From positions 56,967-120,966 of the forward strand of contig CAZBZS010000002.1 of the NCBI GenBank assembly GCA_964496475.1: a DNA stretch of 64,000 bases, read 5' to 3'. A program made the position numbers and the translations under genes. Origin of the DNA: an uncultured Chloroflexota bacterium (lineage in GTDB: Bacteria; Chloroflexota; UBA11872; VXNJ01). Of this stretch, positions 15,156-64,000 are shown piece by piece; within the stretch, counting starts at the first letter, position 1, and every line of letters starts with the position of its first letter. The notes under the pieces were generated by a model. It made no database searches. It saw only the letters and a program-made list of their open reading frames with translations, and was not told the origin of the DNA.

Positions 15156-16021
15156 TCCTTCATGCTATGCCGCATCCCGATTTGCGGCCACTCATACCCG
15201 AACGCAAAATCGAGCGGAGCCTTGCTGGGCAAGAGTCCATCCCGCTGCAGTACTTCGATCAATCGATCGAAATACCCACGCAATACCCGCACCCTGCGAA
15301 TGATATCCCCGACAGTATGTGACCGCACTGCCATTCCCTCCTCTAGCGTCGCCTCCAGGTTCCCTGCCGGATCCGGAAATCGAAGCAACAGCGGCACCCG
15401 CTTGTTGGGCCATGTAAGCCAGGTGCGGTGGTACGCGTATAGCAGCTCGACCAGGTAGTTGATTCCCGCGTTCACATGGGCGTGCGCGGCAATTGCTCCC
15501 GATCGTTCTAGCCAGCTCAACGCTTTGGTCTCATTCAGGTGATAGTCCACGTTGTAGACATTCCGTGCCACCAGATCCTGACGCCGGTCATCGGTGTATT
15601 TGGCCAGCCCGTCTAGCACGGGCTCAACGTCCCCATCGCGGTCGAAGACCAGCACGCCAATCGACAGTAGGTATCGCCAGAATTCTGGACAATGGCCCTT
15701 TCGGTACTCCGCTAGATTCACCCGATTTGTGTCGAAGTGGATCATGCCGCTCGTGTCCAGATTGTCCTTTTCGTGACGCGTCCGAAACCCGGAATCTCCT
15801 GGCGACCAGAGAAAATCCCCGGGAATGACATCGAGTCGAAGCGGCTCGAAAAGCACGATCATATCGATGTCCGAACTCGCTCGGGCATCACCCTGAGCTA
15901 CGCTTTCCGTGATCACCGCGCCTTTGAACGCCGGCTCTGGCTCAAGCTCCAGACCGATGAACCGCATCGCTTGCTCAACCTTTTGTCGGCTGTGCGGATT
16001 GTCCGGTACCGACTTATTCAC
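15113..16021 (-). CDS. Nucleotidyltransferase-fold domain protein
   Basis: 302 aa; GS...DIDMIVLF matches the Pol-beta-type nucleotidyltransferase motif. Confidence 0.5.
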   Translation of the reverse strand: MNKSVPDNPHSRQKVEQAMRFIGLELEPEPAFKGAVITESVAQGDARASSDIDMIVLFEPLRLDVIPGDFLWSPGDSGFRTRHEKDNLDTSGMIHFDTNRVNLAEYRKGHCPEFWRYLLSIGVLVFDRDGDVEPVLDGLAKYTDDRRQDLVARNVYNVDYHLNETKALSWLERSGAIAAHAHVNAGINYLVELLYAYHRTWLTWPNKRVPLLLRFPDPAGNLEATLEEGMAVRSHTVGDIIRRVRVLRGYFDRLIEVLQRDGLLPSKAPLDFAFGYEWPQIGMRHSMKEWREANARYRESRE

Positions 16022-44984: not shown

Positions 44985-47762
44985 ATGTACCCGGAAATCA
45001 TTGCCGGCGCAATCAAGGTGGCCGTTGCCCTACTCGCGTTCCTGAGCTTCGTCGGCTACGGTCCGGCCCGCCTCATGCTGAACGGCCCCTGGGCCCCTTA
45101 TCGGCTGGTGAGCGCACCCGTTGTCGGCTGGATCATCGTGGTGCCGATTTCGTACCTGCTCAACGCGAATCTACTGGGTATGAACCCTATCTTTTGGATT
45201 CTCGTAGGAGTGGGCGTCATCGGCAATGTAGTCGCGTTCCGGTGGCGCGAGCGAATCGCGGCCGTCCCTCAGGATCGCCGTGTACTGCTGGCCGCCGGAT
45301 TAGGTCTCGGCCTTTTCCTAGTGGCCCTGATCCCCCACGCCAACGACTCCAGCCTAGGCCTTCTCGCGCTCAATGTGGACGAGGAACTGTACTGGCCATA
45401 TGCCGAGCACGTGAAATATTTCCCTTCCACCATGGAAGGCGCCGCGCACTCCCCCTTCGGTGATCTCTTTGTCGCGGCCGACTTCCGCTCCCGGGGGCAG
45501 GGCTTCCCTTACCTCCTCTCCCTCGCAAGCATCGTTTCCGGTACAACCACGTTCCTCGCCTACATGCCTCTCGTATACACGCTGCTCGCCCTCAGTGTCA
45601 TCTCCACATTCCTCTTCGCCCGCGTGGGCCTGAACCTCGGCGGACGTACTTCACTCTTGGCAACCGCGTTATATACCACCAATGGATTGCCGCTGTGGTT
45701 CAGCGGTATGGGCTTCGGTCCTCACATGGTCGCCTTCGCTCTATTGCCGCTAGCCCTGGCCGCGTTGACTGTCGCCCTGAATCACGGCCGGACCGGTCCA
45801 ATCCTCTTCGCCGGGCTTGTCGGCGCCGTCCTTCTCGTTTCGTATTTCTGGGCGATTAGCGCCGTATTCCTCGTGTCCGCAACGTTCCTGACGTTCGGTC
45901 TCATCGTTTTCCAACCCCACCGCATCTTGAGAGTCCGCAGGCTTTTCGCTTTCAGCATCGTCGCGCTCGCCGCCGGATCGGTCGGCTTCTTCTGGTTGCT
46001 TCGCTGGGTAATACCCAGACTACATACCGTCGCATCCGATCTGGATGCATCCTTTGGCAACGCCTGGGGTGATCTGTCATTTCCCCCCTTCCAACTTGCG
46101 CCGGGGCTACAGACTTACCACATGGTCTTCGACAGATCGGGGATCATGGCCGCGATACCGAGCTCCCTGTGGGGATTCCTGATTGCCCTTGAGCAACCCG
46201 TGTGGATCGCCCTCTTGCTCTTGGCCGGGTTCGCACTCCTGAGAATGTCCGGTAATCGACTCGCAGCCACCCTGTTGGCCGTCGGTTTTGCCCTCTTCAT
46301 GTTCTGGGTGCTGCGTATAGCTGCCTATCAATATGGTCACTTCAAGAACTTGTCCTACGTATCCTTTTTCGTTGACACGCTCATCGCCGCCGGTCTCGCG
46401 ACTCTCTGGGTTACCGCACGCCAGCGCTTCGCCGACCTCGTCCCGACCGCCACCTGGCGTCGATGGTCAAATGTGCTCTTGCGGACGGCCGTAGCTCTCA
46501 CTCTGGCGGCCCTGTTGACGCTTACGCTGCGCAATAGTCTGCACACCTTCCGCTGGTACTGGCTCGGATTTTCATGGAACATGCCGCACAGCGTTGTCGC
46601 TGACGTGCAGAGAGTGGCCGATCTCATTCCCGCGGGCGCCAACGTCGCCGTTTCCCCCGACGCGGAATACCCGCTAGCTCGCGAGTCCATCAAGTTCCGG
46701 CCGATCACGCTCGCTTTCCATTACGAAAATAACGCCGTCGAACGCTGGTCCCGCCGGCTCTGGGCCTTACTTGCCACAGAACTCCCCGGCCGCGATGTCT
46801 TTCTGCCCGCCGGAACCACCGCCTTCGCCACCAATCCGGAACTCATCCCTGAAAACCCCGATTTTCTCGTGCTGGGCCAGGACGAAGATCCGCGTCTGCA
46901 CGGACTTGTTCAGGCGGAGAACCTGACTCCCGGCGCTGTCGTCGGCCTCTATCGCGTCCCCGGTCCGAATATTCTTTCCGGTGAAGAATTGATCGCGGCG
47001 GCCGGCGGTCGAGGGCCTCTCATTTCCGGCCGTCCACTGACCATCAGAATCGCATCCGACGGCCTCTTCCCGGGTTCCCCCGAAACCGGCTCCGCCGACC
47101 CGTCCGTCCTCCGCCAGGTCCAGTTAGGAATCGCAAATGTATCCACCGTTCCGGTCACCGTTCAGATCGCCTCCGGCGGCCCCCGCACCTCACTTCGCCT
47201 CGAACCCGGCCTTAACTGGATCATCACCGACCCGATTACGACCGGTTCGACGTTCACCCTTGACCCGGCCGAATCTAACTCAGTAATTCCGATCGTCGCT
47301 CGGTCCCTGGAGCCCGCCCTGGGCGTTCCCGCTAGCGTCACCACCGATTCCCGCGCGATCGTTTGGGTTCAAGCGTTCTCACTCGGGGGCACTATAGAAG
47401 CCCGGCTAACGTTCATCCAGCCCGACGACAAAGGACGCAACGTAGGTGTCAGTTACCGTGAAGATATTTCTCGCGGATTCTGGGTAAGCGCCGTGACCCT
47501 GCCGGCGTCGAGCCATCAAATCGAGCTTCTATATTCTGTTCCCGAGCGTCGCCTGAACGAAACCGTGGACGGCGCGTATGAGAAAATCGGAGTCGCCCGG
47601 GAGGCTCCGGCGGACGGCCGCCGTAAATTCGACCTTGTCTTCGCCCACGGTCAGGAAACCGACCGTCGCCTGTCGCTTTTCGAATACCAGTTCTCGGATC
47701 AGATCGTCCGCCTCATCTGGACCCCCTCGATCCCATACGTTTTCACACTCCGGGATCGCTAG
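44985..47762 (+). CDS. Large polytopic membrane protein, GT-C-like (YfhO/PMT-like architecture) with a ~370-aa C-terminal extracytoplasmic domain
   Basis: 925 aa; about 14 TM helices in the first 550 aa; acidic loop motif NVDEELYWPYAEH similar to the DE motif of PMT/ArnT-type GT-C enzymes. Confidence 0.65.
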   Translation: MYPEIIAGAIKVAVALLAFLSFVGYGPARLMLNGPWAPYRLVSAPVVGWIIVVPISYLLNANLLGMNPIFWILVGVGVIGNVVAFRWRERIAAVPQDRRVLLAAGLGLGLFLVALIPHANDSSLGLLALNVDEELYWPYAEHVKYFPSTMEGAAHSPFGDLFVAADFRSRGQGFPYLLSLASIVSGTTTFLAYMPLVYTLLALSVISTFLFARVGLNLGGRTSLLATALYTTNGLPLWFSGMGFGPHMVAFALLPLALAALTVALNHGRTGPILFAGLVGAVLLVSYFWAISAVFLVSATFLTFGLIVFQPHRILRVRRLFAFSIVALAAGSVGFFWLLRWVIPRLHTVASDLDASFGNAWGDLSFPPFQLAPGLQTYHMVFDRSGIMAAIPSSLWGFLIALEQPVWIALLLLAGFALLRMSGNRLAATLLAVGFALFMFWVLRIAAYQYGHFKNLSYVSFFVDTLIAAGLATLWVTARQRFADLVPTATWRRWSNVLLRTAVALTLAALLTLTLRNSLHTFRWYWLGFSWNMPHSVVADVQRVADLIPAGANVAVSPDAEYPLARESIKFRPITLAFHYENNAVERWSRRLWALLATELPGRDVFLPAGTTAFATNPELIPENPDFLVLGQDEDPRLHGLVQAENLTPGAVVGLYRVPGPNILSGEELIAAAGGRGPLISGRPLTIRIASDGLFPGSPETGSADPSVLRQVQLGIANVSTVPVTVQIASGGPRTSLRLEPGLNWIITDPITTGSTFTLDPAESNSVIPIVARSLEPALGVPASVTTDSRAIVWVQAFSLGGTIEARLTFIQPDDKGRNVGVSYREDISRGFWVSAVTLPASSHQIELLYSVPERRLNETVDGAYEKIGVAREAPADGRRKFDLVFAHGQETDRRLSLFEYQFSDQIVRLIWTPSIPYVFTLRDR

Positions 47763-47773
47763 TTAGTCGGAGG

Positions 47774-48634
47774 CTACCGAAGGCCTATTTCAAGGCTTGC
47801 CATCGGCAATTCGCCCGGCAACAACACCACCAGACTCACCGCAACGAGCGCCAGAGTGATCGCCACCACATCAGTGGCCCTGACCGGCAATCTCAGCTTC
47901 CGGGCTGCTAGGAACGCGCCGCCGGCCAGCACCGCCATCCCGGATACCATCAGAATGGCCAGAGCGATGGCCAGCACCGCCCTTGCCTCGGATTGTGCCG
48001 CCTGGGCTGCGGTTGCCAGCCGATCCCAGATCGCCTCCACCCAGGCAAAGGGTCGGGGCGCGCTGGTCACTCGGAACTGCTTGAAATAAAGATCTTGGCC
48101 GTGAATCTCTTCGTCCAGATCGTAGTGGTTACCGAACGGGTACTCATCGGTCCGTACATACCGGAAAAACAGCCTATCGCTAGATGAGCTCAAGATCGCC
48201 TCGGTCCGTAAATAAAACGGCTTGCCGGCGGGGACCACATCCGGCTGAAACCTCAGACTGGCCTGCCAATCGTCCCGACTATCTCGAAACACGACGATTC
48301 CCGATGCGTAGGTATCGGAGGCGTCTGGGTCCGGTTTCAACTCGAATTTCACCCGGATCCAGCCCTGCGGAGCAACATCCGTAGTCAGTCTCAGATCGAT
48401 CCGGGCCAGCCCATCGCCGGGATTGAGCATGGTTTGGCCCTTTACCCCGGTCAACGTCTGCGTCTGGAGGAGGAGTATTTCGCGAGAGAACTCCGCCACC
48501 GGGATAAAGACCGGCCGCAACGCGAAATATGCGATCACCACCATGCTCGTCACCACCATCATCAGGCTAACGCTCACTCGAAGCACGTCGCCTCCGAATA
48601 CGCGACCGGCCCCTCTAGCCAAAAGCAACGACAT
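47774..48634 (-). CDS. Bitopic membrane protein, divergent partner-family paralog D
   Basis: N-terminal TM, ~170-aa domain (TGVKGQTMLNPGDGLARIDLRL...WIRVKFELKPDP...LFFRY) with the same motif order as the other partners, C-terminal TM; 20-bp overlap with the upstream gene. Confidence 0.5.
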   Translation of the reverse strand: MSLLLARGAGRVFGGDVLRVSVSLMMVVTSMVVIAYFALRPVFIPVAEFSREILLLQTQTLTGVKGQTMLNPGDGLARIDLRLTTDVAPQGWIRVKFELKPDPDASDTYASGIVVFRDSRDDWQASLRFQPDVVPAGKPFYLRTEAILSSSSDRLFFRYVRTDEYPFGNHYDLDEEIHGQDLYFKQFRVTSAPRPFAWVEAIWDRLATAAQAAQSEARAVLAIALAILMVSGMAVLAGGAFLAARKLRLPVRATDVVAITLALVAVSLVVLLPGELPMASLEIGLR

Positions 48635-49889
48635 CCGGAATTAAGACAAGGAGAAGGTAGACCAGGTTGCCCGCAACCATCAGCGGAATCGTCGCTGCCA
48701 CTACCGGGCCGGCTCGCGGGGTCAACGGCGCGAACGCCGACAGTCCTATAGCCAGCAGCGCCACGAAGGGCAGGAATTCTGGAAAGAGGTACCGACCGTG
48801 CAGCGCCATGTCCACCGAATGGCTGCTCCATAGGCTCAGCGCCAGTAGTCCGAAGAACAGCATCGCCATCGCGGCAGGCAACCAGTCGGAGTCGGCTCTT
48901 GATCGGCGATCGCGAACCCACCCGACCAACCTCGCCAGCAACCCTGCCAAACCCAGTGCCGCGAGCCCCGCGAGCAGGACATACGCCGCCGCCGGAAGCT
49001 TAAGCTTTACCATCCCGTATCCACCCCAGAACGTTGCAAAGTTCTCGCTCACCCAATCGGTTTCCGTCAGGAAGCTCCAGAGGCTATATCCGCGCTCTCG
49101 GTGCGAAATCGGAGCCCCGCCCGACGCGTCCACCGCCGCCTGCGTCGTCGCCACTCCGAGCGGGTCACCGTAAACGATGATCATCCTCACGTACCACCAC
49201 AGCGAAATCGCCAGGCCAATAACGGCCACGATCCCGACCACTCTCAGAATCCGACGCGGATATCGGCGCAACGCCCAAACGACCGTCAGGCCCGCCACTG
49301 GGAAGATCATGAATCCGGTGAATTTGTGAAGCGCCACCAGTCCCAGCGCCACACCCAGGAGCACCGATTCTCGAGTTCCGAAATCCGCCTGATACGCCCG
49401 TACCAGCGCATAGACGCCAAAGGTCGATGCCGCGATCGCCGGCGAATCATTGGTCACGTAGCTGAAGACAAGAGTGAACTGCGGGGTAGTCGCCATCACC
49501 GCCAGCGGCCACACCCGCATCAAGGCGCTAGCAGGAAACAGGCAGCGCAGTGTCAGGTAGGCCAATGTCAGCGTGATTGGAAATAAAGCCACATTCACCA
49601 GTCGGGCCAGGTGGTTGTCAAAAGCCACCTCACCCGATCCGAGCGCACCGAGCAAGAGCGCCGCCGGGACCGCCGACAGGTTGGGCGTAAGTTCATACGC
49701 AACCTGAGCCCTGATCGGCAGTCCGGCGAACGCACCCTCCGCATAGCCCGTAAAGAGCGGCCAGCCTCCCGTGTTCACCATTTCCTGGATCAGGCGAAAG
49801 TGATTTTCTTCGTCTGGTCCCCCGAAGATCGGGGGCCGAACAACCGACCAGATGAATGCGTTCGCCGTTGCGTACACAATCAGCGCCAC
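48615..49889 (-). CDS. PMT_2/ArnT-like GT-C glycosyltransferase (GT39/GT83-like)
   Basis: FGGPDEENHFRLIQEM DE motif in the first loop, about 11 TM helices; the ORF is open to 50168, but that leaves only 2 bp before the divergent selB, so the GTG at 49889 (RBS GAGGGT) is preferred. Confidence 0.6.
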   Translation of the reverse strand: MALIVYATANAFIWSVVRPPIFGGPDEENHFRLIQEMVNTGGWPLFTGYAEGAFAGLPIRAQVAYELTPNLSAVPAALLLGALGSGEVAFDNHLARLVNVALFPITLTLAYLTLRCLFPASALMRVWPLAVMATTPQFTLVFSYVTNDSPAIAASTFGVYALVRAYQADFGTRESVLLGVALGLVALHKFTGFMIFPVAGLTVVWALRRYPRRILRVVGIVAVIGLAISLWWYVRMIIVYGDPLGVATTQAAVDASGGAPISHRERGYSLWSFLTETDWVSENFATFWGGYGMVKLKLPAAAYVLLAGLAALGLAGLLARLVGWVRDRRSRADSDWLPAAMAMLFFGLLALSLWSSHSVDMALHGRYLFPEFLPFVALLAIGLSAFAPLTPRAGPVVAATIPLMVAGNLVYLLLVLIPDVVAFG

Positions 49890-50170
49890 GACTAGTAGAC
49901 CCTCGCCATGACGCTCGAGAAAATGCTGGCCCGATTCCCGTTTCAAACCCAATCCGCGTACTCCTTGGAGACGGTATACGGGGGAACCGCTTCTCGCCCG
50001 ATCGGTAAGACGCGCCGAGCCTACTACAAGCCGATCACCCCTCCGATCTTCCTGTCCACCATCCCTGCCACCATCTTTACCGGCCGTCAGCGACGCTTCA
50101 ATCCGTTGGCGCCATCCCCGGGGCACTAATATCTTCATTTCAGTTTCCAGCTTCGACGGGACACCCACCC

Positions 50171-52054
50171 TTGTTCACGATAGGTACCGCTGGGCACATC
50201 GACCACGGCAAATCCTCGCTCGTAGAGGCCCTCACCGGCGTCCATCCGGATCGCCTGCCTGAGGAAAAGCAGCGCGGCATGACCATCGACCTCGGCTTCG
50301 CCTCATTGACCTTGCCTCGGGGCGATTTGATCGGGATTGTGGACGTACCCGGGCACGAGCGCTTCGTCCGCAACATGGTCGCCGGCGTTGGCGGCATCGA
50401 CGCCGCCCTTCTGGTTGTGGCGGCAGACGAAGGCGTAATGCCCCAAACCCGCGAACATCTGGACATCATCGATTTGATGGGTATTGATCGCGGGGTGGTC
50501 GCACTTACAAAAGCCGATCTCATCGACGACGAAGACTGGATCGAGCTGGTAACCGCCGACATCCTTGAGCTGCTGGACCACACGTCGCTTCGAAACTCCA
50601 CCGTAGTCCCGGTCTCCGCCGTCCGCCGCCGGGGTCTGGACAAGCTACTTACCGAACTGGATTCCGCCTTGGCCGGGATCGACCGCCCCAATCTCTCAGG
50701 GGTCCCTCGACTACCGGTGGATCGCTCCTTCTCCATCCCTGGTTTTGGCACCGTAGTCACCGGCACTCTGCAGGATGGGTTCCTTGAAGTCGGAGCCGAA
50801 CTAGAAATTCTGCCCGCCGGTGGCCGAACTAGAGTGAGAGGTATCCAAATGCACGGTCAAAGTGTGGAGCGCGCCGAACCTGGCGCCCGCACCGCCGTTA
50901 ATCTTGCCGGTGTATCCGCACTCGATCTTCCTCGGGGAACGGTTCTCGCCCTTCCCGGAACTATGACCCCCACCCGTCTCATGGATGTCCAATTCCAAAT
51001 GTCGCCTCACGCACCGTTCTCCTTGCACAGCGGCAGGGACATAGCTTTCCACACGGGAACGTCTGAAGTACTAGCGGCCGTTCGCCTCCTGGAGAGCGAT
51101 GTCCTTTACGCGGGCCAGACCGGCTGGGCGCAAATGCGCGCTAGGGCTCCGCTGGTTGTGTGCCCCGGCGATCACTTCATCGTCCGGCAGTTATCTCCGG
51201 CCATCACTCTGGGCGGAGGAGTCGTGGTGGCGCCCCGCGCCGCCCGGATTCGCCGCCATGATCAACGAGCCATCCAACTGCTTGAGCGGCTCACCGGGGG
51301 CAGCACCGTTGATTTGTTGCTGGCCACGCTCGATCCCCACGGCAAACTCGACCGCGACGATCTCGCCCGGCGAGCGGATCTATCGGAGTCGGAGTTCTCC
51401 GACGCACTGGATTCGGCGCTCGCCGAGAAGCGGATCGTCGAAGTCGACTCAACACTTTTTGCTGTCGAGGAAGTGCATCGCCTTAGCGAGAAACTGCTCT
51501 CAACCCTTAAACAATTTCACGCCGCCAACCCGTTACGCCCAGGCATACCGCGGGAAGAGCTGAGAAACCAGCTTGGGCTTTCCACCGACAATTTCGTCGG
51601 CGTTATGCAACGATTTATCGATGAAGGTATCGCCAGCGGAGGAGACACCTTCATCGCCCTCCCAGAACACACACCTGCGCTCACTCCCGAAATAGAGGCC
51701 AACGTCCGATATTTACTCGGCCAACTCTCCGGTTCCGGCCTGGAGGTGCCCCCACTGCGAGACATTGCGGCCAGTCTAGGAATCGGGGACGAAGTGCTGC
51801 AGGCCCTGGAGGATGACGGGCGGCTGATTCGGGTGACCCCCAACATCGGTTATGAACGCGCCGCCTTCAACAGCCTTGTGGAGCAGGTCAAGACTCTTAT
51901 CGACGAACGCGGCCGGATCGATGTTGCCGGACTACGTGATCAGTTCGGCAGCAGTAGGAAATACTGCCTCGCGCTGCTCGAGCACCTGGACTCGACCGGC
52001 GTGACAAGACGGGTCGGCGACGACCGAGTGCTGCGAGCCCGCCGAAACGCCTAG
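50171..52054 (+). CDS. selB: Selenocysteine-specific translation elongation factor
   Basis: 627 aa; TAGHIDHGKSSLVEALTGVHPDRLPEEKQRGMTIDLGFA is near-identical in pattern to E. coli SelB; C-terminal winged-helix region ...SRKYCLALLEHLDSTGVTRRVGDDRVLR. Confidence 0.9.
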   Translation: MFTIGTAGHIDHGKSSLVEALTGVHPDRLPEEKQRGMTIDLGFASLTLPRGDLIGIVDVPGHERFVRNMVAGVGGIDAALLVVAADEGVMPQTREHLDIIDLMGIDRGVVALTKADLIDDEDWIELVTADILELLDHTSLRNSTVVPVSAVRRRGLDKLLTELDSALAGIDRPNLSGVPRLPVDRSFSIPGFGTVVTGTLQDGFLEVGAELEILPAGGRTRVRGIQMHGQSVERAEPGARTAVNLAGVSALDLPRGTVLALPGTMTPTRLMDVQFQMSPHAPFSLHSGRDIAFHTGTSEVLAAVRLLESDVLYAGQTGWAQMRARAPLVVCPGDHFIVRQLSPAITLGGGVVVAPRAARIRRHDQRAIQLLERLTGGSTVDLLLATLDPHGKLDRDDLARRADLSESEFSDALDSALAEKRIVEVDSTLFAVEEVHRLSEKLLSTLKQFHAANPLRPGIPREELRNQLGLSTDNFVGVMQRFIDEGIASGGDTFIALPEHTPALTPEIEANVRYLLGQLSGSGLEVPPLRDIAASLGIGDEVLQALEDDGRLIRVTPNIGYERAAFNSLVEQVKTLIDERGRIDVAGLRDQFGSSRKYCLALLEHLDSTGVTRRVGDDRVLRARRNA

Positions 52055-54899: not shown

Positions 54900-55177
54900 T
54901 TACGCGAGGCCCTCGACTTTCCATTCCGACGGACCACAACATCGCGCGTCCATCCGAAGTCTAGGCCGATCTTGTTGGTGGCGAACGATCCCCGAGCAGA
55001 CACCCGACCAGATAGGCTCATCGCACCGTCGCCAATACCGGGCCCCATCCGTTTGCGATGTCTTGCACAGTCCTCCGCGCGACCAGGCCGCCGTTAAACT
55101 GTCACCAGCAACAGAGTTCACCCGGCGGCGCGCCCAGGGTTCGGAGCTCAGCCTTTCCAGTTCGACAAGGGGAAAAA

Positions 55178-57016
55178 TTGGCTCAAATCGGAAAATCGGT
55201 TGAAAACGGTAAAGACCCGACCTATGTTCTGGGCATCAGCGAGGCCCACAACTGCACGGCTGCCCTGCTCCGCGACGGTGAGATTATCGCGGTCGCGAGC
55301 GAGGAACGGTTCACTCGTTTCAAGAACGATACCGGTTACCCGAGACAGGCAGTTGAATACGTGCTTTCGCACGCGGGCATCCGATCCGATCAGGTCGATC
55401 TGGTCGTGCTGACCTATAACAATCCCTACCCTCATTTCGGTGTTGCCATCGACCACGTCGATCCCCGCGAGCAGGCCATGGAGACGGGTGCGCGCCGGGT
55501 CACTTCGCTGCGAAAGGTGGTCCATCGCAGCGCCCAATTCGTGTACGGGATGGGATCGTCCAATCGCGTCGCCTCGGGACTCCTCGATTTCCTCGAAAAA
55601 AATATCTACGATCGCGTATACACTCCCGCTGTGTGGCCGCGATTGCGACGAATTCAGTATCGGGACCTGGCCACGGAACTCGGGATTCCTGAATCGAAGA
55701 TTCACTCGGCGGACCATCACCTCTGCCACGCCGTGTCTGCCCATTACTTCGGCCCGGTGCCCGAGGGCCGGACGGTAGTTCTTACGCTGGACGGTGCTGG
55801 GGACGAAGGCTGCGCCACGGTGTCCGTGGCGGAAGACGGCGCCCTTAGACGACTAGTTCAGACACCAAATCTTTACTCCCTGGGAATTCTCTACACTCTG
55901 GTCACCCGTGCTCTGGGAATGAAGGCCGGCGAACACGAGTACAAGGTGATGGGCCTTGCTCCCTACGCCGATCGGGATGGGGTAGCGCGCGTTCTCCCGA
56001 TCCTCCAGGATCTCCTCCACGTCGATGGGCTCAGATTTCACGGACCGACCTCCACTCGCGCTGCCGGGCACCGTTTGGAGAAGGCCTTCCACCGACAGCG
56101 GTTCGACTGGATCGCCGGCGCCGCCCAGGAGCACTGCGAAAACCTGATGCGAGAATTTGCGCAGAACGCTCTGCAGGCCACCGACGCTGTGAACCTACTC
56201 GCTGCCGGAGGCGTCTTCATGAACGTGAAAGCGAACATGATTCTTAAAGACTTGCCCGGATTGCAATATTTCGGCGTCTGTCCCAGCGCCGGTGATGAGT
56301 CCACCCCCATCGGTGCCGCTTACCACGGTTACCAATTACTCACCGGAAAAAAACCCCTCCCCCTCTCCGATCTGTATCTCGGCCCCGACCTCGTCCCCGA
56401 CGAAATCGATGACGCCATCCGCGAATTCGGCCTCGCCAACTCCTGCGAAGTGCGCCGACCGGATGATGTCGATCTGGAAACCGCCAGAATGTTGTCCGAT
56501 GATCAGATCGTTGCCCGCTGCCAGGGTCGCATGGAATTCGGCGCCCGTGCGCTGGGCAATCGCTCCATCCTCGCCAATCCCTCCAACCCCGATGTCGTCC
56601 CGATCATCAACCATCAGATAAAGCAACGCGATTTCTGGATGCCCTTCGCCGGAACGCTGCTTGACGAGAGTCAACACCGATATATCAAAAATCTGACCAA
56701 CTTGCCGTCCCCTCACATGATGACGGCCTTCGATACCCTTCCCGACGCTCAGGCGGATTTAGCCGCGGCGATCCATCCGTTTGATAAAACTATGCGACCT
56801 CAGATTCTGCGGCAGACCGACAACCCCGCATACCACGCGCTGATTCGTTCCTTTGAAGACATTACCGGCATCGGTGCAGTTCTGAACACATCATTCAATC
56901 TGCACGGAGAGCCGGTCGTCTGCAACGCCAAGGACGCCGTGAAAACGTTCGTAGAGTCAGGGCTGCGGAATCTGTCCCTGGGCCCGTACATGATCTCGAA
57001 GAATCGAGAGGGCTAG
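55178..57016 (+). CDS. Carbamoyltransferase (NodU/CmcH family)
   Basis: YVLGISEAHNCTAALLRDGEIIAVASEERFTRFKNDTGYP N-terminal pattern; TTG start at 55178 with RBS AAGGGG (the ORF is open from 55058). Confidence 0.85.
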   Translation: MAQIGKSVENGKDPTYVLGISEAHNCTAALLRDGEIIAVASEERFTRFKNDTGYPRQAVEYVLSHAGIRSDQVDLVVLTYNNPYPHFGVAIDHVDPREQAMETGARRVTSLRKVVHRSAQFVYGMGSSNRVASGLLDFLEKNIYDRVYTPAVWPRLRRIQYRDLATELGIPESKIHSADHHLCHAVSAHYFGPVPEGRTVVLTLDGAGDEGCATVSVAEDGALRRLVQTPNLYSLGILYTLVTRALGMKAGEHEYKVMGLAPYADRDGVARVLPILQDLLHVDGLRFHGPTSTRAAGHRLEKAFHRQRFDWIAGAAQEHCENLMREFAQNALQATDAVNLLAAGGVFMNVKANMILKDLPGLQYFGVCPSAGDESTPIGAAYHGYQLLTGKKPLPLSDLYLGPDLVPDEIDDAIREFGLANSCEVRRPDDVDLETARMLSDDQIVARCQGRMEFGARALGNRSILANPSNPDVVPIINHQIKQRDFWMPFAGTLLDESQHRYIKNLTNLPSPHMMTAFDTLPDAQADLAAAIHPFDKTMRPQILRQTDNPAYHALIRSFEDITGIGAVLNTSFNLHGEPVVCNAKDAVKTFVESGLRNLSLGPYMISKNREG

Positions 57017-57023
57017 GCCAGCG

Positions 57024-60000
57024 GTGGTACCCCAACGCCGCTGGATCGCATTCGGCAGGCGATTCGTGCCGTGCCCGGCCCTGGCGGTCGTTCTGCTCGC
57101 TGGGTTCGCCCCGTTCTTCTGGGTGAAATTCGGCTATGTCGCAAAAGCCGAAGATTTCATCCTTCCCATGACCCTGGAGCAATGGTACGAGTTCTTCAGC
57201 ACCTGGCAAACCCGCGTCGGTTTCGGTTCGAGCCCCGATGATCGTCTGCCTGCGGTGTTCTTTCTCTTCTGGCCCGCCCTGTTCCGTGCCGTCGGTGCAT
57301 CCATCGAGCTTGCCCAGCGGCTCCAGTTCGTACTTTGGTTCTCGGCTATGGGGCTCTCCATGTACGTGCTCATGCGATACCTCACCAGTTCCCGAATAGC
57401 GTGGGCTGCCGCCAGCCTCGTTTACATGTTCAATTTCTATCAGGAACCAGTCTGGCAGGGCGTCAACATTGCCAACCTCAGCGCATTAATCGCGCTACCA
57501 CTTGCTCTGGCAGTGACCATTTCATTCACCCGGAATGATCGATTGCTGACCAGTGCGGCCCTTATAGCTTTGATTACCGTGGTCGGATCTGGTGTCGGAG
57601 CCAACCCGCCCATGGCACTGATTGCGATGATCCCCGTCCCGCTTTACATGATCATGTACATGATCCACCGATTCGCGACCGGCCGGGCCCTGCAAGCACG
57701 CCGAATGCTCATGATGGCGTCAATCGCCCTGGTTCTTATCGTGGCAGTCAACGCCTACTGGCTCGTACCGCAGTCCGTCGGACTCATTACCGGCGGACCG
57801 GGACAAAATTTTATCGGCCGCACGAAGGACGTTGGACTTTCCCAACTCACTCACCTCTCCAGCTTCACCACTCCGCTCAATGTCTGGCGGCTGCAGGGCG
57901 CCTGGGTCTGGTACGGCGGCTTCGAAGGCATCCCGTATGTTCCCTACGCGGAGGGGTACTTCAAGAATCCGCTACTTATCATCGGGAGTTTTCTGCTTCC
58001 AGTGGCTGCCCTTGGCGGTTTCGCCCTCCGGAGAGATCGCAAATTTCTGTATTTTGGCTTCGTGGCATTCCTCGGGCTAGTCCTGGGCAGTGGCACCAAC
58101 GGTCCGTTCGGTCCGATCTTCGCTTTGCTGTGGAAAAATGTGCCTCTTTTCTGGGTCCTGCGGAGCCCCTGGTACAAGGCCACCTCACTGACAATCCTTG
58201 GCTTTGCGCCATTGGCCGGCCTCTTCGTCGCCGCGACCACGGCATCCATAGGCCAATTCCTGGCCAGCTCGCGTTTCGGTCTCCGCTACGGGCGGACCGC
58301 CCGGACCCTGTCAGCGAGCTTCCCTTGTCTCTTGGCGGTGATCTATCTCCTGTACGCAATGCCCATCGTCCGGGGGCACTTCATGATCCAGCGCCCGCTG
58401 GACTCACCGCTGGGCACCCTTCAAGTCGCTATTCCGGACTACCTCGTCGAGGCAGCGAACTGGATGAATGAGCATCCGGGCGATTACCGCGTGCTCTCGT
58501 TCCCCCCTGCGCTGCGGCTTACGACCGATTGGGGCTATACCGGCTACATCCCACCGATCGGCGAGCTAACTACCGAGCCCTTCATCAATCTGGTCGAACC
58601 GTCTGAGATGCAAGCCTACCTGTATGCCCAGACGCTGGGCTCCCGGAATGGTCCCGTTGCCCGGGTCGCCGGGAGATCTGGCATCGGTTATTTCCTTCAC
58701 CAGCGCGATGTCGTCCGACCCGAGTTCCCGGACTATTTCGACGATTACATTGATACGGTCCTGGAATGGCAAGGGATCGATGAGGTGGCCCGTTTTGGTT
58801 CGCTGGTTTTTTACGCTGTCCCCGATGTTCGAGACCTCGTCTGGGGTTCGCCGCTTACAGTCCTCACGCTGACCGGGCTCGCGTCTCTCAGTCCGCTCAC
58901 GAACAGCCTGACTGACCCTGACCCTGCCATCGTCATGATCGACCCTTCCGGGGCAGATTCCGTTACCGCACAGTTTGCCAAAGATATACCTCATACGAGC
59001 ATCCTGCGCCTTGGGAATGGTTTCAACGAGTTTCTTGCGTTCAAGACCCATGAGAGCAGCCTGACTATTTCGCCGGGGTCCAAGTCCGTGGACATGGAGA
59101 TACCGGTTGACGGAACGTACGAGATTTGGGAGCTAGTCGGGAGGACGACCTCCTCCGCGCTTCCCGGGTTCGACTTTGTCAACCGTGAACTCCTGCGGCA
59201 TGATGTGTTTCCCACCCCCAAAGGCCCCAGGGCTCCGTCCATCGACGGCAAACCGCTAACCCTCTACCCGTTCGCCGACGTATTCGAGCTTCCCGATTCT
59301 TGGGTCTACTGGGGTAGTTTTGAAGGGGTTCGGGGTAGCAGCACACTCAAATTAGGATTCCCATCGCCGGCTCCTGACGGGCTTCGGCTCGTCCTTGTGC
59401 GCTCAGCCGACCGGATCGGCCTGGACAATAAGATGCTATTGGACAACGAATCTTCTTTTCAGTTTCCTGACGGCGCTGAGCTCGGTCTCCTCCCTGGACG
59501 ACGATTCCCAGGTCACATGTACCTTTTCGGCCGTGTCACTCCCAAAGATATTGTCGATCTCCCGGTCGAGATGCAGGTAAAGATCGCGATCAAAGATAAC
59601 TGGGACGAGCCCGAGATCGGAGTAGAGGGACTAAGCACGCGGCGCCTTCGAGCAGTTCAGAAATCCGCACCCCACCTGGAGATTTCCAACCTATCAGGGT
59701 CTGTACAAACAATCGCCATGGTTCTTCGGCCGACCCCGATTGGGACCATTCCTAGGTCTCTTTGGATTAACGTGGGAGGTTCCTTTCATTCGATCTTCCT
59801 CCTTCAGCCGTCGGTACCTCGGGAAGTATTGGTCCTCTCAATCGACGTTGAACCTGGGACAACCTATGTGAATCTCTACTCCCCTGAGGGAGACTCGCTT
59901 CTGCCGGACGGGAGCTTTGCCAGTTTCGAATACGAAATGCCGATCGTGATCGGGACGATCAAACGTGAGCGATCCTTCAACGTTGTACAGGGCGGCAACT

Positions 60001-60599
60001 ATCGTCTTGGGGTCCATCTGACGTACCAGACGTCTACCGGCCAGGGCCCTAACGCTCTGCTGAACGGTCTGACTATCGACGGACACGACTTGCTCCCCGT
60101 CCTCGCCAGTGACGATCAGTATCGGATCGCCACGACCACCATAAATCTCTCGGCCGGGATGCACACGATAATCATCGACCAGAAAATGGGTGCATCCATT
60201 CCCGTGACACTGGTTCCCGTCCGGCCGGAAGTCAACGACGATCAGGGCCTGGTCATCCGGCATGAATCCATTTCCCCCAGCCATGTCCGCGCGTCCGTGC
60301 GAACCGAGGATCCGATCATGCTCGTGCTCAACGAACTGTTCGACAGCCGTTGGGAAGCCACTGTCAATGGGGTCCCAGTTGGCCCCCATTTGCGAGTGAA
60401 TGGGTTTGCCAACGGCTTCTTTGTCAACCAAGTTGGAGAGTACGAAATCGAGTTCAAATTCCGCCTACAGCCTCTCGCTGACGCCACCAGAAATCTCTCC
60501 GCCGCTTGCATCGCCGCCCTCGCATCGCTATTACTAATGAGTCTTGCACGCGACCGGATGGCCCGTAAGACCCGTCCCCCAGAAGACACCGCGTCTTGA
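57024..60599 (+). CDS. Very large membrane protein: N-terminal polytopic GT-C-like domain plus ~700-aa extracytoplasmic region and C-terminal TM anchor (AftD/DUF3367-like architecture)
   Basis: 1191 aa; about 14 TM helices in the first 430 aa; a final TM helix near the C-terminus; paralogous to the partial gene at 61701. Confidence 0.65.
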   Translation: MVPQRRWIAFGRRFVPCPALAVVLLAGFAPFFWVKFGYVAKAEDFILPMTLEQWYEFFSTWQTRVGFGSSPDDRLPAVFFLFWPALFRAVGASIELAQRLQFVLWFSAMGLSMYVLMRYLTSSRIAWAAASLVYMFNFYQEPVWQGVNIANLSALIALPLALAVTISFTRNDRLLTSAALIALITVVGSGVGANPPMALIAMIPVPLYMIMYMIHRFATGRALQARRMLMMASIALVLIVAVNAYWLVPQSVGLITGGPGQNFIGRTKDVGLSQLTHLSSFTTPLNVWRLQGAWVWYGGFEGIPYVPYAEGYFKNPLLIIGSFLLPVAALGGFALRRDRKFLYFGFVAFLGLVLGSGTNGPFGPIFALLWKNVPLFWVLRSPWYKATSLTILGFAPLAGLFVAATTASIGQFLASSRFGLRYGRTARTLSASFPCLLAVIYLLYAMPIVRGHFMIQRPLDSPLGTLQVAIPDYLVEAANWMNEHPGDYRVLSFPPALRLTTDWGYTGYIPPIGELTTEPFINLVEPSEMQAYLYAQTLGSRNGPVARVAGRSGIGYFLHQRDVVRPEFPDYFDDYIDTVLEWQGIDEVARFGSLVFYAVPDVRDLVWGSPLTVLTLTGLASLSPLTNSLTDPDPAIVMIDPSGADSVTAQFAKDIPHTSILRLGNGFNEFLAFKTHESSLTISPGSKSVDMEIPVDGTYEIWELVGRTTSSALPGFDFVNRELLRHDVFPTPKGPRAPSIDGKPLTLYPFADVFELPDSWVYWGSFEGVRGSSTLKLGFPSPAPDGLRLVLVRSADRIGLDNKMLLDNESSFQFPDGAELGLLPGRRFPGHMYLFGRVTPKDIVDLPVEMQVKIAIKDNWDEPEIGVEGLSTRRLRAVQKSAPHLEISNLSGSVQTIAMVLRPTPIGTIPRSLWINVGGSFHSIFLLQPSVPREVLVLSIDVEPGTTYVNLYSPEGDSLLPDGSFASFEYEMPIVIGTIKRERSFNVVQGGNYRLGVHLTYQTSTGQGPNALLNGLTIDGHDLLPVLASDDQYRIATTTINLSAGMHTIIIDQKMGASIPVTLVPVRPEVNDDQGLVIRHESISPSHVRASVRTEDPIMLVLNELFDSRWEATVNGVPVGPHLRVNGFANGFFVNQVGEYEIEFKFRLQPLADATRNLSAACIAALASLLLMSLARDRMARKTRPPEDTAS

Positions 60600-61693
60600 C
60601 CGGGCGCCGTTGGGTATTCACCCTGGCAGCTTGGGCCGGTGTAGCTCTTCTCGCCGCAATCGCAGTTGCGAGTCAACTCACCATTCGTCGCAACGTACAA
60701 CTTTGGGAGATCGATCAGCCCTATCAAGAAGTGGTGTACCTGGAGCCCAGCGGCAGCGTGAGCCAGCGTATCGACACGCAAATTGGGGATGTAGCCGGTT
60801 TTGTAGCCCTCGTGCGACCTTCTGATTCTCGGCGGCCAGCGTCAGTAAACATGCGAATTCGGCGGCCGGGGGCCGACCGCCCAATCGTTCGACAGTCAAA
60901 TCAGCTCACCAACAGCCCTAACCATCAGAGACTGGCCGCGATTCCTCTGCCGCCGATCCCTTCCAGCGACGGAAGGTCCTTTGAATTCGAGATAGAGGTT
61001 GCCGCCGATTCTCCTGGAGGCCTCGTCATCCTTGGCAGCATCGATCTCGATGAGATCCCACCGCGCCAGCTAACCATCAACGGTGCCCAAACGTTACCCA
61101 ACCTAAGAGCGCTCGTTTCACCGATAATATCCGTGAGCACCTGGTCGCTGGTCAAGGGGACGTTCGGTTTCAACGCCACGCGCTCGGCACTGTACTTGCT
61201 GGCGATCGCCGTCTTGAGCGCTACCGGGATCGCATTCGGCCGACTCGCCCTCCGGTGCGTGAGCGGAGCCTCCACCCGCGCCCTCCCGTTTATCGTTCTC
61301 CTCCCTATCGCGGTGGCCCTGATCCTGGCCGCAGCAACTGCCAACTTCACCGAGGAATTCGGGAGGGACTATCGTTTGGCCCTGACAGAAGCCTACTGGA
61401 ACACCGGCCTTGCCTATTCTTGGCTTCTCAGCGTTTCAATCGTCGCCGCCTGGCTGCTCGTCATGTGGGCGCAGCGGCGCCCTTCCCCCGACCCCACATG
61501 GCGAGCGCGGCTGCGCCCTGCGAATCTGTGGCAGCCGCTGGTTGCTGTCACCATGGCCGCCCTGGCGTTCTCAGTCGGATTTGCCCTGCTCGGATTGGAC
61601 GGTGTAGGAAACGCGACGGGCGCTCTAGCCGAGATCCTGTTTGGCCTAGCTCTGATCCTCGGCATAGGCGGCTCGGTTCGGTCTTCGGAATAG
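60596..61693 (+). CDS. Bitopic/polytopic membrane protein, partner-family paralog F
   Basis: TTG start overlaps the upstream stop (TTGA); N-terminal TM, domain with SFEFEIEVAADSPGGLVILGS, then about 5 C-terminal TM helices. Confidence 0.55.
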   Translation: MTGRRWVFTLAAWAGVALLAAIAVASQLTIRRNVQLWEIDQPYQEVVYLEPSGSVSQRIDTQIGDVAGFVALVRPSDSRRPASVNMRIRRPGADRPIVRQSNQLTNSPNHQRLAAIPLPPIPSSDGRSFEFEIEVAADSPGGLVILGSIDLDEIPPRQLTINGAQTLPNLRALVSPIISVSTWSLVKGTFGFNATRSALYLLAIAVLSATGIAFGRLALRCVSGASTRALPFIVLLPIAVALILAAATANFTEEFGRDYRLALTEAYWNTGLAYSWLLSVSIVAAWLLVMWAQRRPSPDPTWRARLRPANLWQPLVAVTMAALAFSVGFALLGLDGVGNATGALAEILFGLALILGIGGSVRSSE

Positions 61694-61700
61694 CTCCGCC

Positions 61701-64000
61701 GTGATTCTTCTTTCTCGACTCCAGAAACTCCTGAATTCACCAGGGCGCTCCGGTCTCGCGGTCCCGATCCTGATCATCGCGCTCGGATTCATGCCTGCCA
61801 TCTGGGCCCCTTGGGACGTCGTTCTCATATCCGAGGACCTCGCCCTTCCTCGCACACCCCAGCAGTTCTTCCTCACTCTCCATTCCTGGAACCCGATCCT
61901 CAACACCGGCACCCCTTACAACGTCGCCCATACCGCCATCCTCACCTTTGCCCAGCAAGCCGGGTTACAGGAGGTCGGGCTCAGCCCGGCCGTCACCCAA
62001 CGCCTGATCATGATCGTGTGGATGACGTTGTCCGGCCTGGGCATGTACGTACTGGTCCGAGCACTGTTCGCGTCCCGACTGTCCCGCAGTCAATGGCAGA
62101 CCGCCGCCGCCGTCGCGGCAAGCTTCTACATGTTCAATCTCTACATCGAGCACGCCTGGCGCGGGTTCAACATCGGCGTCCTCACGGCCCAGACCACCCT
62201 GCCGCTGCTGCTGACCCTGCTCTACCTTGGGTTCAAGGGCCGTATATCCGCTACCCGCCTGGCCCTCTACACCGTTCCCGTCGCGCTGTGGTCCTCGGGC
62301 GTTGGCGTAAACCCGCCGCTGATGCTGATCTTTGTCGCCACGATAGTCGCCTTCCCTCTGGCCTACCTGATGTTTTCCCACAGCGGCCGTTTGTCCGCCC
62401 GCCTGTTCCCGGTGCTGCGCACGGTGGGAATTCTGAGCGCCGTGTCGATCCTGACCAACGCGTTCTGGATTATCCCTTTCGTCGGCCAGATCCAGGCGAC
62501 CACGACCGGCGAACTGACCACCTCAAGCGAGTTGGCGTCCAACTGGCTCGGCGGCATCTCCGCCAATGCGTCCTTCACCAAGGTGCTGCGATTTCAGGGC
62601 GACTGGACCTGGTACCAGGGTTGGAACGAGCCCTACCGTCCCTATGCCAGCTCCTATGAGGACTCCACCGGCCTGGCGATGCTCTCCTGGGTGGCCCCGG
62701 CCCTGGTCATAATCGGCTTGGCGGGACCGAAGCGACGGCTCCGCCTCTTCTTCGGCGTCATCACCGCCCTCGCCCTGCTCCTCAGCATGGGCACCCACCC
62801 GCCGATGGACCGAATCTATCTGTGGCTGGTTGGGAACGCACCCCTCTTCTGGATCATCCGCAGCCCCTGGTTCAAATTCGCCCTGGTCACCAGCCTCGGA
62901 TTCGCCGTTCTCGGCGGACTTGGCGCGGCGAACCTTGCCGGCTGGCTGCGCCAGGTCTCCCGCGGATCCCGAGTCGGCCGGCAAGTTGGCAGTAGAACCA
63001 CCGCCATTGTTGTGATCGGTGCCGTCGCCATCAACCTCATCTATGCCTACCCGGTGACCACCGGCCAGATGTTCCCGGCGGCAGAGACCCTTCCTCCCAA
63101 CCAGATGCGGATCCCCGACTACATCGCCGACGCCTCCTCGTGGTTTGACGAGAACGTGGGCGACGGGCGGGTCGCGGCCCTGCCCGAGACCACCGTCTGG
63201 GCCGACCAGAGCGGCTTCGTCAGCTTTTCTCCGGTACTGACCCAGATTGGCACAGCAGCAATCGTCTACCCTTTCCAGACCGTCCACGGCTCCCTGGTGT
63301 CGGCCACGAACGGGATGCTGAACGACATCGCCTACGAGGCCCTCTACCGGGCATCCACACGACGCGCCGACGAAATCCTCCGGTTGATGAGCGTCCGCTA
63401 CTTGAACCACGAGACCGGCATCAAATACTGGCTGTACGCTGGCGATGTCGACTCCGCCGACTGGGTTCGGCTCCGGCTGGAGAAGCAGCTCGGCATCGAG
63501 CCGGTCGCGACATTCGGCGCCTGGGAGGTCTACGCCGTTGATGACCCTTTGCCCGAGTTCTATCTGGCCCCGGGGCTGTCCATTGTCGCCGGTGGCGTAG
63601 AGGCCCTGCCGACGATGGTCGGGATGGACCTGCTCTCCACCCCGGCGATTCTGTTCTCGGATCAGCAAACTCCCGAGGGCCTGTCCCGGGCTTTGGACTC
63701 GCCCCTGCTCAGGGATATTCTGTTCTTCGCCAGCGGGCCCGAAGAATTGGCGCTCGACCTCATACCGGCCCGCCATCGCCACCCAGTACCGCGGAGCGGC
63801 CTCCCGGTAGAGTTCACCGTCGACGAAACCGCCGAGTACCGAATCTGGCTGCGATCCCCCGATAGGACCCGCTTTCCCTCGGGTGACCTCGCCGTAGACG
63901 GACAGCCGCTCGATCTCAGTTCCAGCCCGGCCCCATCGACGCCATTCTGGATACCGCTCGGCGTCCATCGGCTCGCCACCGGACCTCACCTCCTCACCGG
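61701..64000 (+). CDS. Partial (3'-truncated by the window end) paralog of the 1191-aa GT-C-like membrane protein
   Basis: Frame open from GTG 61701 to the window end (>766 codons, checked codon by codon); EDLALPRTPQQFF...LSGLGMYVLVRAL and APLFWIIRSPWFKFALVTSLGFA align with EDFILPMTLEQWY...SAMGLSMYVLMRYL and VPLFWVLRSPWYKATSLTILGFA of the gene at 57024; absent from the ORF track because it has no stop in the window. Confidence 0.65.
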   Translation, partial: MILLSRLQKLLNSPGRSGLAVPILIIALGFMPAIWAPWDVVLISEDLALPRTPQQFFLTLHSWNPILNTGTPYNVAHTAILTFAQQAGLQEVGLSPAVTQRLIMIVWMTLSGLGMYVLVRALFASRLSRSQWQTAAAVAASFYMFNLYIEHAWRGFNIGVLTAQTTLPLLLTLLYLGFKGRISATRLALYTVPVALWSSGVGVNPPLMLIFVATIVAFPLAYLMFSHSGRLSARLFPVLRTVGILSAVSILTNAFWIIPFVGQIQATTTGELTTSSELASNWLGGISANASFTKVLRFQGDWTWYQGWNEPYRPYASSYEDSTGLAMLSWVAPALVIIGLAGPKRRLRLFFGVITALALLLSMGTHPPMDRIYLWLVGNAPLFWIIRSPWFKFALVTSLGFAVLGGLGAANLAGWLRQVSRGSRVGRQVGSRTTAIVVIGAVAINLIYAYPVTTGQMFPAAETLPPNQMRIPDYIADASSWFDENVGDGRVAALPETTVWADQSGFVSFSPVLTQIGTAAIVYPFQTVHGSLVSATNGMLNDIAYEALYRASTRRADEILRLMSVRYLNHETGIKYWLYAGDVDSADWVRLRLEKQLGIEPVATFGAWEVYAVDDPLPEFYLAPGLSIVAGGVEALPTMVGMDLLSTPAILFSDQQTPEGLSRALDSPLLRDILFFASGPEELALDLIPARHRHPVPRSGLPVEFTVDETAEYRIWLRSPDRTRFPSGDLAVDGQPLDLSSSPAPSTPFWIPLGVHRLATGPHLLT

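Follow-up and report, generated by a model that had tools for sequence, protein, structure and literature searches.

A group of closely spaced genes at the end of a 64,000-nucleotide (nt) stretch of DNA from an uncultured Chloroflexota bacterium (contig CAZBZS010000002.1, positions 56,967 to 120,966; hereafter the window) encodes giant membrane proteins distantly related to AftD, a studied mycobacterial drug target. Two of them, termed F and G, are encoded in the window, with G running off its edge. A third, H, follows just past the window, and a smaller membrane protein, f, is encoded between F and G. F, G, and H are probably anciently diverged, non-redundant GT-C glycosyltransferases of the AftD/DUF3367 superfamily which build a cell-surface glycan together with f. 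Judged by profile searches and a structural model, they are divergent members of a broad AftD-like GT-C clade, but strictly speaking they are no AftD-type arabinofuranosyltransferases. The three proteins share a plan in which a core of ~11 transmembrane (TM) helices, an invariant acidic (A/S)-E-D sequence opening the first outward loop and a soluble alpha/beta GT-C domain are combined with several outward-facing beta-sandwich modules and a single TM anchor at the C-terminus. The fold and an invariant aspartate, D44, agree with the GT-C superfamily, and a GT2 gene adjacent to H suggests a lipid-linked donor.

F occupies positions 57024..60599 on the plus strand, starts with GTG and translates into 1191 amino acids (aa) without internal stops, as a sequence-only reading of this DNA had listed it. 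The frame of G opens with a GTG at 61701, the sole start codon ahead of an ATG at 61791, and stays free of stops up to base 64000 (61701..64000, plus strand; 766 codons), the nearest in-frame stop upstream being a TAG at 61665. Given the stop-trinucleotide frequency of the window (0.022), the probability of 766 stop-free codons in a row is ~3e-8, and the other five frames of the same stretch contain 3–32 stops each. The same reading had proposed this frame and remarked that G is invisible in the supplied list of open reading frames (ORFs); a stop was looked for and none was found in frame, and G is absent from the list because ORFs running off the window end are omitted. A 488-aa ORF on the minus strand (62523-63989) lies wholly within G and is most probably no gene but a shadow ORF, since G is homologous to F and the GC content is high.

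Between the two genes lies f (60596..61693, plus strand; 365 aa), whose TTG start within cTTGAc overlaps the TGA stop of F by 4 nt, in agreement with the overlap noticed earlier at the 3' end of F. The stop of f is located 7 nt ahead of the GTG of G. Upstream, the putative operon starts with a NodU/CmcH-type carbamoyltransferase gene (55058..57016, plus strand; 652 aa; Pfam Carbam_trans_N 3.8e-34 and Carbam_trans_C 2.6e-57), which ends 7 nt ahead of F. This tight spacing (7 nt, a 4-nt overlap, 7 nt) is consistent with a single transcript.

The references for AftD are the Mycobacterium abscessus structures 6W98, 6WBX, and 6WBY, the M. tuberculosis protein Rv0236c and the Pfam family PF11847 (GT-C_AftD/DUF3367). 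According to the AftD paper, the enzyme has 16 TM helices and is arranged as TM1–11, a soluble GT-C domain, the carbohydrate-binding modules (CBMs) CBM1–3, a beta-sandwich, TM12, and TM13–16, the last of which bind acyl carrier protein (ACP). Searches of the Protein Data Bank (PDB) with the single sequences of F and G returned a spurious designed-repeat match or nothing, and a profile was needed. With a profile of 19 family members (A1), AftD is the only match in the PDB (6wbx/6w98; E value 3e-5), and the match is colinear over the soluble GT-C domain and over the C-terminal sandwich with its TM helix. A profile of 41 diverse relatives (A6), which contains no true AftD sequence, reaches AftD at an E value of 1.4e-22 in three colinear stretches, namely the TM core, the soluble GT-C domain, and the final sandwich with the TM helix. 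The fold leads to the same protein: a Foldseek comparison of the AlphaFold2 (AF2) model of F (predicted local distance difference test, pLDDT, 78.7; predicted template modeling score, pTM, 0.77) with the PDB places AftD (6w98_A) first over the full length with an E value of 1.9e-22, followed by STT3 (1e-6), PglB (7e-5), and EmbB (6x0o, 1.2e-2). AftD is thus the top PDB match by profile as well as by fold.

The AF2 model of F shows ~11 N-terminal TM helices, a soluble region and one C-terminal TM helix. The earlier count of about 14 N-terminal TM helices is replaced by ~11 plus one C-terminal anchor, as given by the model and by colinearity with AftD, while the proposed extracytoplasmic region of ~700 aa between the TM core and the C-terminal TM anchor is seen in the model. 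This region includes several beta-sandwich segments between residues 600 and 1146 and gives no Pfam match to a CBM or F5/8-type-C domain. The C-terminal TM helix (residues 1148–1183, an AF2 helix; 60465..60572, plus strand) is equivalent to TM12 of AftD, and F ends 8 residues past it. A TM13–16, ACP-binding bundle is absent in F, G, and H, since all three proteins end right after their single C-terminal TM helix (8–20 residues past it).

Several of the conserved positions of AftD can be traced in F. The AftD paper names five essential residues (K39, D41, E251, K361, and D474) and a tryptophan, W272, which is 100% conserved. In F, the motif AED (residues 42–44; 57147..57155, plus strand) stands at the start of the first extracytoplasmic loop, and D44, which is invariant in A1 and A6, is predicted to be a catalytic or metal-binding residue. 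E43-D44 are located where AftD has D37-T38-K39-L40-D41, and in the alignments D44 falls within 0–3 residues of D37/K39/D41. The motif WVWY (residues 294–297; 57903..57914, plus strand) lies in a long loop equivalent to the EL4 loop of AftD and has W294, W296, and Y297 invariant in A1; three mappings agree that W294 corresponds to AftD W272, R289 to R267, and W503/G504 to W469/G470. The motif RSPWYK (residues 380–385; 58161..58178, plus strand) aligns, with one gap, to the AftD-type motif LRN..(K/R) which holds K361 (LRNVHK), so that K385 approximately matches K361. In A6, R380 is invariant and K385, R289, W503, and G504 are nearly invariant. At the other end of the protein, NGFANG (residues 1126–1131; 60399..60416, plus strand) marks the last beta-sandwich as its signature and in the alignments faces VNGWQQGW of AftD and NGFANGW of the AftD-type proteins P0020 and P0021; the profile stretches 1077-1151 (A1) and 967-1057 (A6) align to AftD ~1192-1311, which comprises NGxxxGW and the TM helix.

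F, G, and H share with AftD the GT-C fold with its 11-TM N-terminal core, an acidic residue at the opening of the first outer loop, the tryptophan of the EL4-like loop, the LR(N/S)..K motif, a colinear soluble alpha/beta GT-C domain, and a beta-sandwich-rich outer region whose last sandwich carries NG(F/Y/W)xxG(W/F) and is followed by a TM helix. They differ in being ~250 aa shorter, in giving no F5/8-type-C CBM matches, in having no site like the acyl carrier protein site of AftD, and in their occurrence in Chloroflexota, as opposed to Actinobacteria for AftD; their donor is probably not decaprenyl-phospho-arabinose. The shared module is widespread. An exhaustive profile search finds 11,159 representative clusters (50% identity) at E values of 1e-3 or lower and 1,916 at 1e-30 or lower, and 23 of the 41 sampled relatives match PF11847 at 1e-3 or lower. 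With ~11,000 such clusters and with the existence of a "minimal" AftD that has no ACP-binding bundle, a comparative frame becomes available for separating the core of AftD from its mycobacterial additions. A literature search found no paper discussing AftD relatives outside Actinobacteria. Patescibacteria carry longer versions of 1800–1960 aa, as in Saccharibacteria and Berkelbacteria metagenome-assembled genomes (MAGs; L021 35-5443 and L022 3779-9661), and the search of representatives includes proteins of up to 1932 aa whose GT-C module starts after residue 900 or 1140.

The paralogy of F and G, claimed earlier on the basis of motifs in the same order, is borne out by alignment over the TM cores: F and the fragment of G in the window share 30% identity over 661 columns in BLASTP (E value 8e-62), starting from residues 11 and 15. 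The exact F protein is present in a public collection as P0001, on a 121-kb NCBI contig, and a member of its cluster, P0022, is encoded on L002 and L003, both contigs from marine metagenomes. Over 16 kb, L002 and the window are set apart by 2 substitutions and by one 9-nt indel inside G, and L002 supplies the downstream sequence which completes G at 1161 aa (L002 14678-18163). F and complete G align over 1243 columns (residues 11-1184 and 15-1158) with 26.6% identity and an E value of 6e-71. Directly after G on L002, beyond the window, lies H, a protein of 1025 aa which shares 30% identity with G over 666 aa (E value 6e-79); the tandem pair of the sequence-only reading is accordingly a triple. 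H is followed on the opposite strand by the GT2 gene and then by a methyltransferase gene. For annotation, the lesson is that a real gene for 1161 aa was missed by the ORF list solely through running off the window.

G retains the acidic motif as SED (residues 44–46, first extracytoplasmic loop; 61830..61838, plus strand) and the basic motif as RSPWFK (residues 387–392; 62859..62876, plus strand), both located by a motif check and the F–G alignment, together with NPP at 204 and WTWY at 302. Because G and H both keep (A/S)ED, WxWY, and RSPW(Y/F)K, all three proteins look catalytically competent. The 9-nt indel lies at 63078-63104, where the window has no counterpart of the codons REH of L002 and the reading frame is kept; it falls in the loop that follows the final TM helix of the G core, and the next 911 nt show 0 mismatches. 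G also has a GC content at third codon positions of 0.79–0.82, as opposed to 0.65–0.73 in F, f, H, and every other gene checked, a trend that recurs in the close relatives L008 and L007 and not in distant ones.

The arrangement is conserved beyond the window. In a survey of 17 loci with one genome per species, nine loci belong to Chloroflexota MAGs (from marine samples such as Tara), including two near-identical relatives (86%), while the remaining ones belong to Omnitrophota, Patescibacteria, and one actinomycete MAG. The order F-f-G-H is found in L002/L003, L007, L008, L009, L010, L012, and L013, and partly in L014. In a neighbor-joining tree, the F-, G-, and H-type genes form three clades with one member per genome each, and F orthologs across the Chloroflexota MAGs are only 35–40% identical to each other. 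Judged by these orthologous clades and their divergence, the triplication is old and all three copies have been kept. G-type orthologs occupy the same position in at least seven divergent Chloroflexota MAGs. Wherever a Chloroflexota locus extends far enough, F is followed by a homolog of f (353–452 aa, 22–29% identity); such homologs come directly after an F-type gene in 13 related loci besides the window. Omnitrophota have a tandem triple of their own without f. The carbamoyltransferase gene lies directly upstream of F in L001, L002, L007, L008, L010, and L014, and directly upstream of the middle paralog in the Omnitrophota loci L017 and L019, and thus stands next to AftD-like GT-C genes in two phyla. 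The unit is best described as a putative conserved carbamoyltransferase-F-f-G-H operon of marine Chloroflexota.

Some loci depart from this order. L001, a 72%-identical relative, carries an IS3-type transposase pair (rve, HTH_Tnp_1; 14826-15979) after f at the position of G; no G- or H-type gene was found in this locus, which instead continues with unrelated minus-strand genes of 1072 aa and 672 aa and then an ArnC-like GT2 gene. In L005 (14632-15984, also in L006), the position of G holds a 450-aa protein which is homologous only to the C-terminal ~240 aa of G (43% identity); it could be G after truncation or a frameshift, or else an independent protein made of a sandwich and a TM helix.

The GT2 gene after H points to the kind of donor that the operon may use. 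Its product matches ArnC (9hwj) over its full length with an E value of 2.6e-44 and GtrB (5ekp) with 1e-35, and its hydrophobic C-terminal ~80 aa lie inside the aligned span. By these matches and its hydrophobic C-terminus, the protein is a predicted polyprenyl-phosphate monosaccharide synthase. The gene is listed after H in L001, L002, L005, and L012. Taken together, the F-f-G-H operon most likely builds a cell-surface glycan. In the proposed sequence of steps, the ArnC/GtrB-type GT2 would first, on the cytoplasmic side, transfer the sugar of a nucleotide sugar to polyprenyl phosphate; the sugar would perhaps be O-carbamoylated by the NodU/CmcH-type enzyme encoded before F, and the lipid-linked sugar would be flipped to the outer face. 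There, F, G, and H may each transfer sugar to a different position or at a different stage of the growing cell-surface glycan, and the jelly-roll sandwich of f probably binds or positions the glycan acceptor for F. In marine Chloroflexota, the AftD-like module occurs in an operon in which the GT-C gene was triplicated long ago and which also encodes a dedicated membrane partner, a carbamoyltransferase, and a donor synthase of the ArnC/GtrB type. Concrete genes thereby become candidates for the envelope glycans of uncultured bacteria that are abundant in the ocean.

A number of observations weigh against this reading. The Pfam family of AftD is matched by F with 22.9 bits, below the gathering cut-off of 26 (E value 2.4e-5; residues 60–594 against profile positions 36–542 of 661), and gives no match for the G fragment, full-length G, or H. 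F is only 13–14% identical to AftD. The register of D44 relative to AftD K39/D41 is uncertain by 2–3 residues: HMM alignments place D44 opposite K39, MAFFT places E43 opposite D37 of DTK, and the F family has no lysine counterpart of K39. AftD WGLTRDEPL aligns to WGYTGYIPPI of F, so that D474/E475 fall on Y508/I509, and G has SGFVSFSPV in this region; E251 aligns to an unconserved loop of low pLDDT in F (~258–270). Since E251 and D474 have no conserved counterpart, the chemistry of the F family may differ from that of AftD. Scans for promoters and terminators stayed at the level of shuffled background, so the operon call is drawn from spacing and synteny. No flippase for a lipid-linked monosaccharide was identified. 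The AF2 model of f, built from a shallow alignment (A5), has a pLDDT of 62.9 and low confidence outside the beta-sandwich of ~150 aa, and its Foldseek matches to jelly-roll and CBM4/CBM22-like domains are weak (E values of 1e-4 to 1e-3). Of the earlier proposal that the giant proteins are of AftD type, the superfamily homology, domain order, fold, and profile similarity therefore stand, and strict membership of the AftD family fails because of the Pfam threshold, D474, E251, and the ACP module.

F, G, and H might be protein glycosyltransferases like STT3, PglB, or PMT which decorate S-layer or envelope proteins, a reading we consider unlikely. It draws on STT3 and PglB being the next-best fold matches of F (E values of 1e-6 to 1e-4) and on a PMT-like GT-C gene in the same island. 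A regular-expression search, however, failed to find WWD(Y/W)G in any of the three proteins, the fold match to AftD surpasses those to the oligosaccharyltransferases by 16 orders of magnitude, and the outer region with its multiple beta-sandwiches resembles the glycan-binding region of AftD.

Less probable still is that F and G are true AftD orthologs, i.e., alpha-(1->3)/(1->5) arabinofuranosyltransferases which use decaprenyl-phospho-D-arabinose and make arabinan. AftD is their closest solved structure and only significant sequence relative in the PDB, and F does have its sub-threshold PF11847 match; the low identity to AftD, the unconserved D474/E475, the position of E251 in an unconserved loop, and the missing TM13–16/ACP module and F5/8-type-C CBM matches all speak against it. 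Decaprenyl-phospho-arabinose is made from phosphoribosyl pyrophosphate (PRPP) by a UbiA-type enzyme together with DprE1/E2. The window ORFs that were scanned, all of at least 200 aa, gave no match to UbiA- or DprE1-type Pfam families, and the conserved neighboring donor synthase is an ArnC/GtrB-type GT2 which uses nucleotide sugars. Arabinan synthesis is unlikely because of these two facts and the loss of D474.

We give equally little credence to F, G, and H being non-enzymatic, as glycan-binding scaffolds or exporters which retain the GT-C fold. The loss of AftD D474 and E251 would fit, as would the large share of the protein taken up by beta-sandwich modules, but the GT-C active-site positions D44, R380, and K385 are kept across thousands of relatives (K385 nearly invariant in A6) and a lipid-phosphate sugar synthase is conserved next to H. 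Finally, it is largely refuted that G is a redundant copy of F, or one in decay, and that the tandem has no functional meaning: tandem duplicates are often short-lived and the composition of G is odd in its third-position GC, yet on L002 its 1161 codons run without interruption, it retains every motif that is invariant in the family, and its orthologs at the same position in at least seven divergent MAGs form a clade of their own.

The preferred reading, a set of non-redundant AftD-like glycosyltransferases building a surface glycan, has parallels in other systems. EmbA, EmbB, and EmbC are tandem mycobacterial GT-C paralogs, each responsible for a distinct step on one envelope glycan. As tandem large GT-C paralogs they are analogous to F-G-H; they differ in belonging to another GT-C family, with a weak fold match, and in having no small partner gene of the f type. 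In ArnC-ArnT and GtrA/GtrB/GtrC, as here, a GT2 gene homologous to ArnC/GtrB stands beside GT-C genes with the same logic of donor supply, whereas ArnT and GtrC, also GT-C enzymes, have ~550 aa and no giant outer domains, and no GtrA-like flippase was identified at the F-f-G-H locus. STT3 and PglB share the GT-C TM core with F, but the WWDYG motif is absent in F, G, and H and the architecture of the outer domains differs.

The partner protein f is probably a non-catalytic membrane subunit accessory to F. Its model consists of a helix (residues 3–29), strands between 31 and 181 (pLDDT 75–90), and helices from 194 to 364 at low confidence, and the C-terminal helical region probably forms 4–5 TM helices. 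Relatives of f are rare, with seven detectable in an indexed search of 5.8 billion proteins, and no Pfam, NCBIfam, or PDB sequence relative was found. A complex of comparable idea is TmaT-AftD, in which AftD is bound 1:1 to a second integral membrane protein (bioRxiv 10.64898/2026.07.31.741936); TmaT differs in being a polytopic acyltransferase, as opposed to the TM helix, beta-sandwich, and C-terminal helical bundle of f. An origin of f as a split-off TM13–16/ACP domain of AftD was considered and rejected: a profile of the f family finds no AftD in the PDB, and hhalign against the C-termini of P0020 and P0021 gives 0.2% probability for a correspondence to the C-terminal bundle.

The window holds further pairs of this layout. 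A, B, and E are paralogous polytopic membrane proteins of 669–693 aa which are 32–46% identical, and each is followed by a smaller protein, a, b, or e (242–300 aa, likewise paralogous), whose gene comes as an overlapping partner (A/a 37729-39738/39569-40471; B/b 40515-42524/42517-43245; E/e 52818-54899/52094-52831, the last pair on the minus strand). Like f, the proteins a, b, and e combine an N-terminal TM helix, a beta-rich domain, and C-terminal TM helices, and come after a large polytopic protein. BLASTP of f against a, b, and e gives nothing; between the f family (A2) and the a/b/e family (A3), hhalign reports one match, the sole one, of 83% probability (E value 8.9e-6, 129 columns). The earlier description of f as a partner-family gene thus holds for its overlap with F, while its link to a/b/e comes from this single match. 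A copy of an F outer domain as the source of the sandwich of f or of a/b/e was rejected, with hhalign below 9% for all four segments. A, B, and E have no PDB sequence relative, reach an hhalign probability of only 20% against the F core and, together with a, b, and e, give no Pfam match up to an E value of 5 except a chance-level one of A to Sdh_cyt (E value 0.0055, below the cut-off). None of F, G, f, E, e, and D is covered by an NCBIfam model. A/a, B/b, and E/e look like further GT-C-plus-partner modules, which is unproven.

A broader proposal, which we put forward tentatively and think more doubtful than not, is that F, f, G, and H are a membrane assembly line for a Chloroflexota-specific envelope glycopolymer, possibly carbamoylated, and that f, a/b/e, and d are undescribed obligate GT-C accessory subunits, each built as a TM-anchored jelly-roll sandwich joined to a helical bundle. 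If this were true, f-type subunits would supply in trans what AftD has in cis as its CBMs, along with an extra membrane domain.

The operon lies at the end of a glycan island which extends over ~13–64 kb of the window and contains five GT2 genes, four epimerase/dehydratase genes, and genes for a GDP-mannose-4,6-dehydratase-type enzyme, an asparagine-synthase-like amidotransferase, a radical-SAM/B12 protein, a flippase-like protein, the PMT-like GT-C, and several unannotated polytopic proteins. The PMT-like GT-C gene (48615-50168, minus strand; PF02366, E value 1.2e-7) is overlapped at its end by d (47774-48634, minus strand; 286 aa), which again has an N-terminal TM helix, a beta domain, and C-terminal TM helices. 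d and e share a QDL(V/Y)F pattern without profile similarity, and homology of d to a/b/e or f was rejected (hhalign below 1%). C (44985-47762), a polytopic protein of 925 aa with ~12 TM helices and no Pfam match, adjoins the PMT-like pair, as it does in L001 and L002.

A gene for the selenocysteine elongation factor SelB (50171-52054) is located between the PMT-like pair and the E/e pair; ARAGORN finds no tRNA in the window and hence no tRNA-Sec, and the position of the SelB gene is kept in L001 and L002. At the start of the window lie genes for a GH127 beta-L-arabinofuranosidase (306-2231, minus strand) and a sulfatase (2394-3695), which are catabolic and unrelated to the AftD-like genes despite the "arabinofuranose" in the name.

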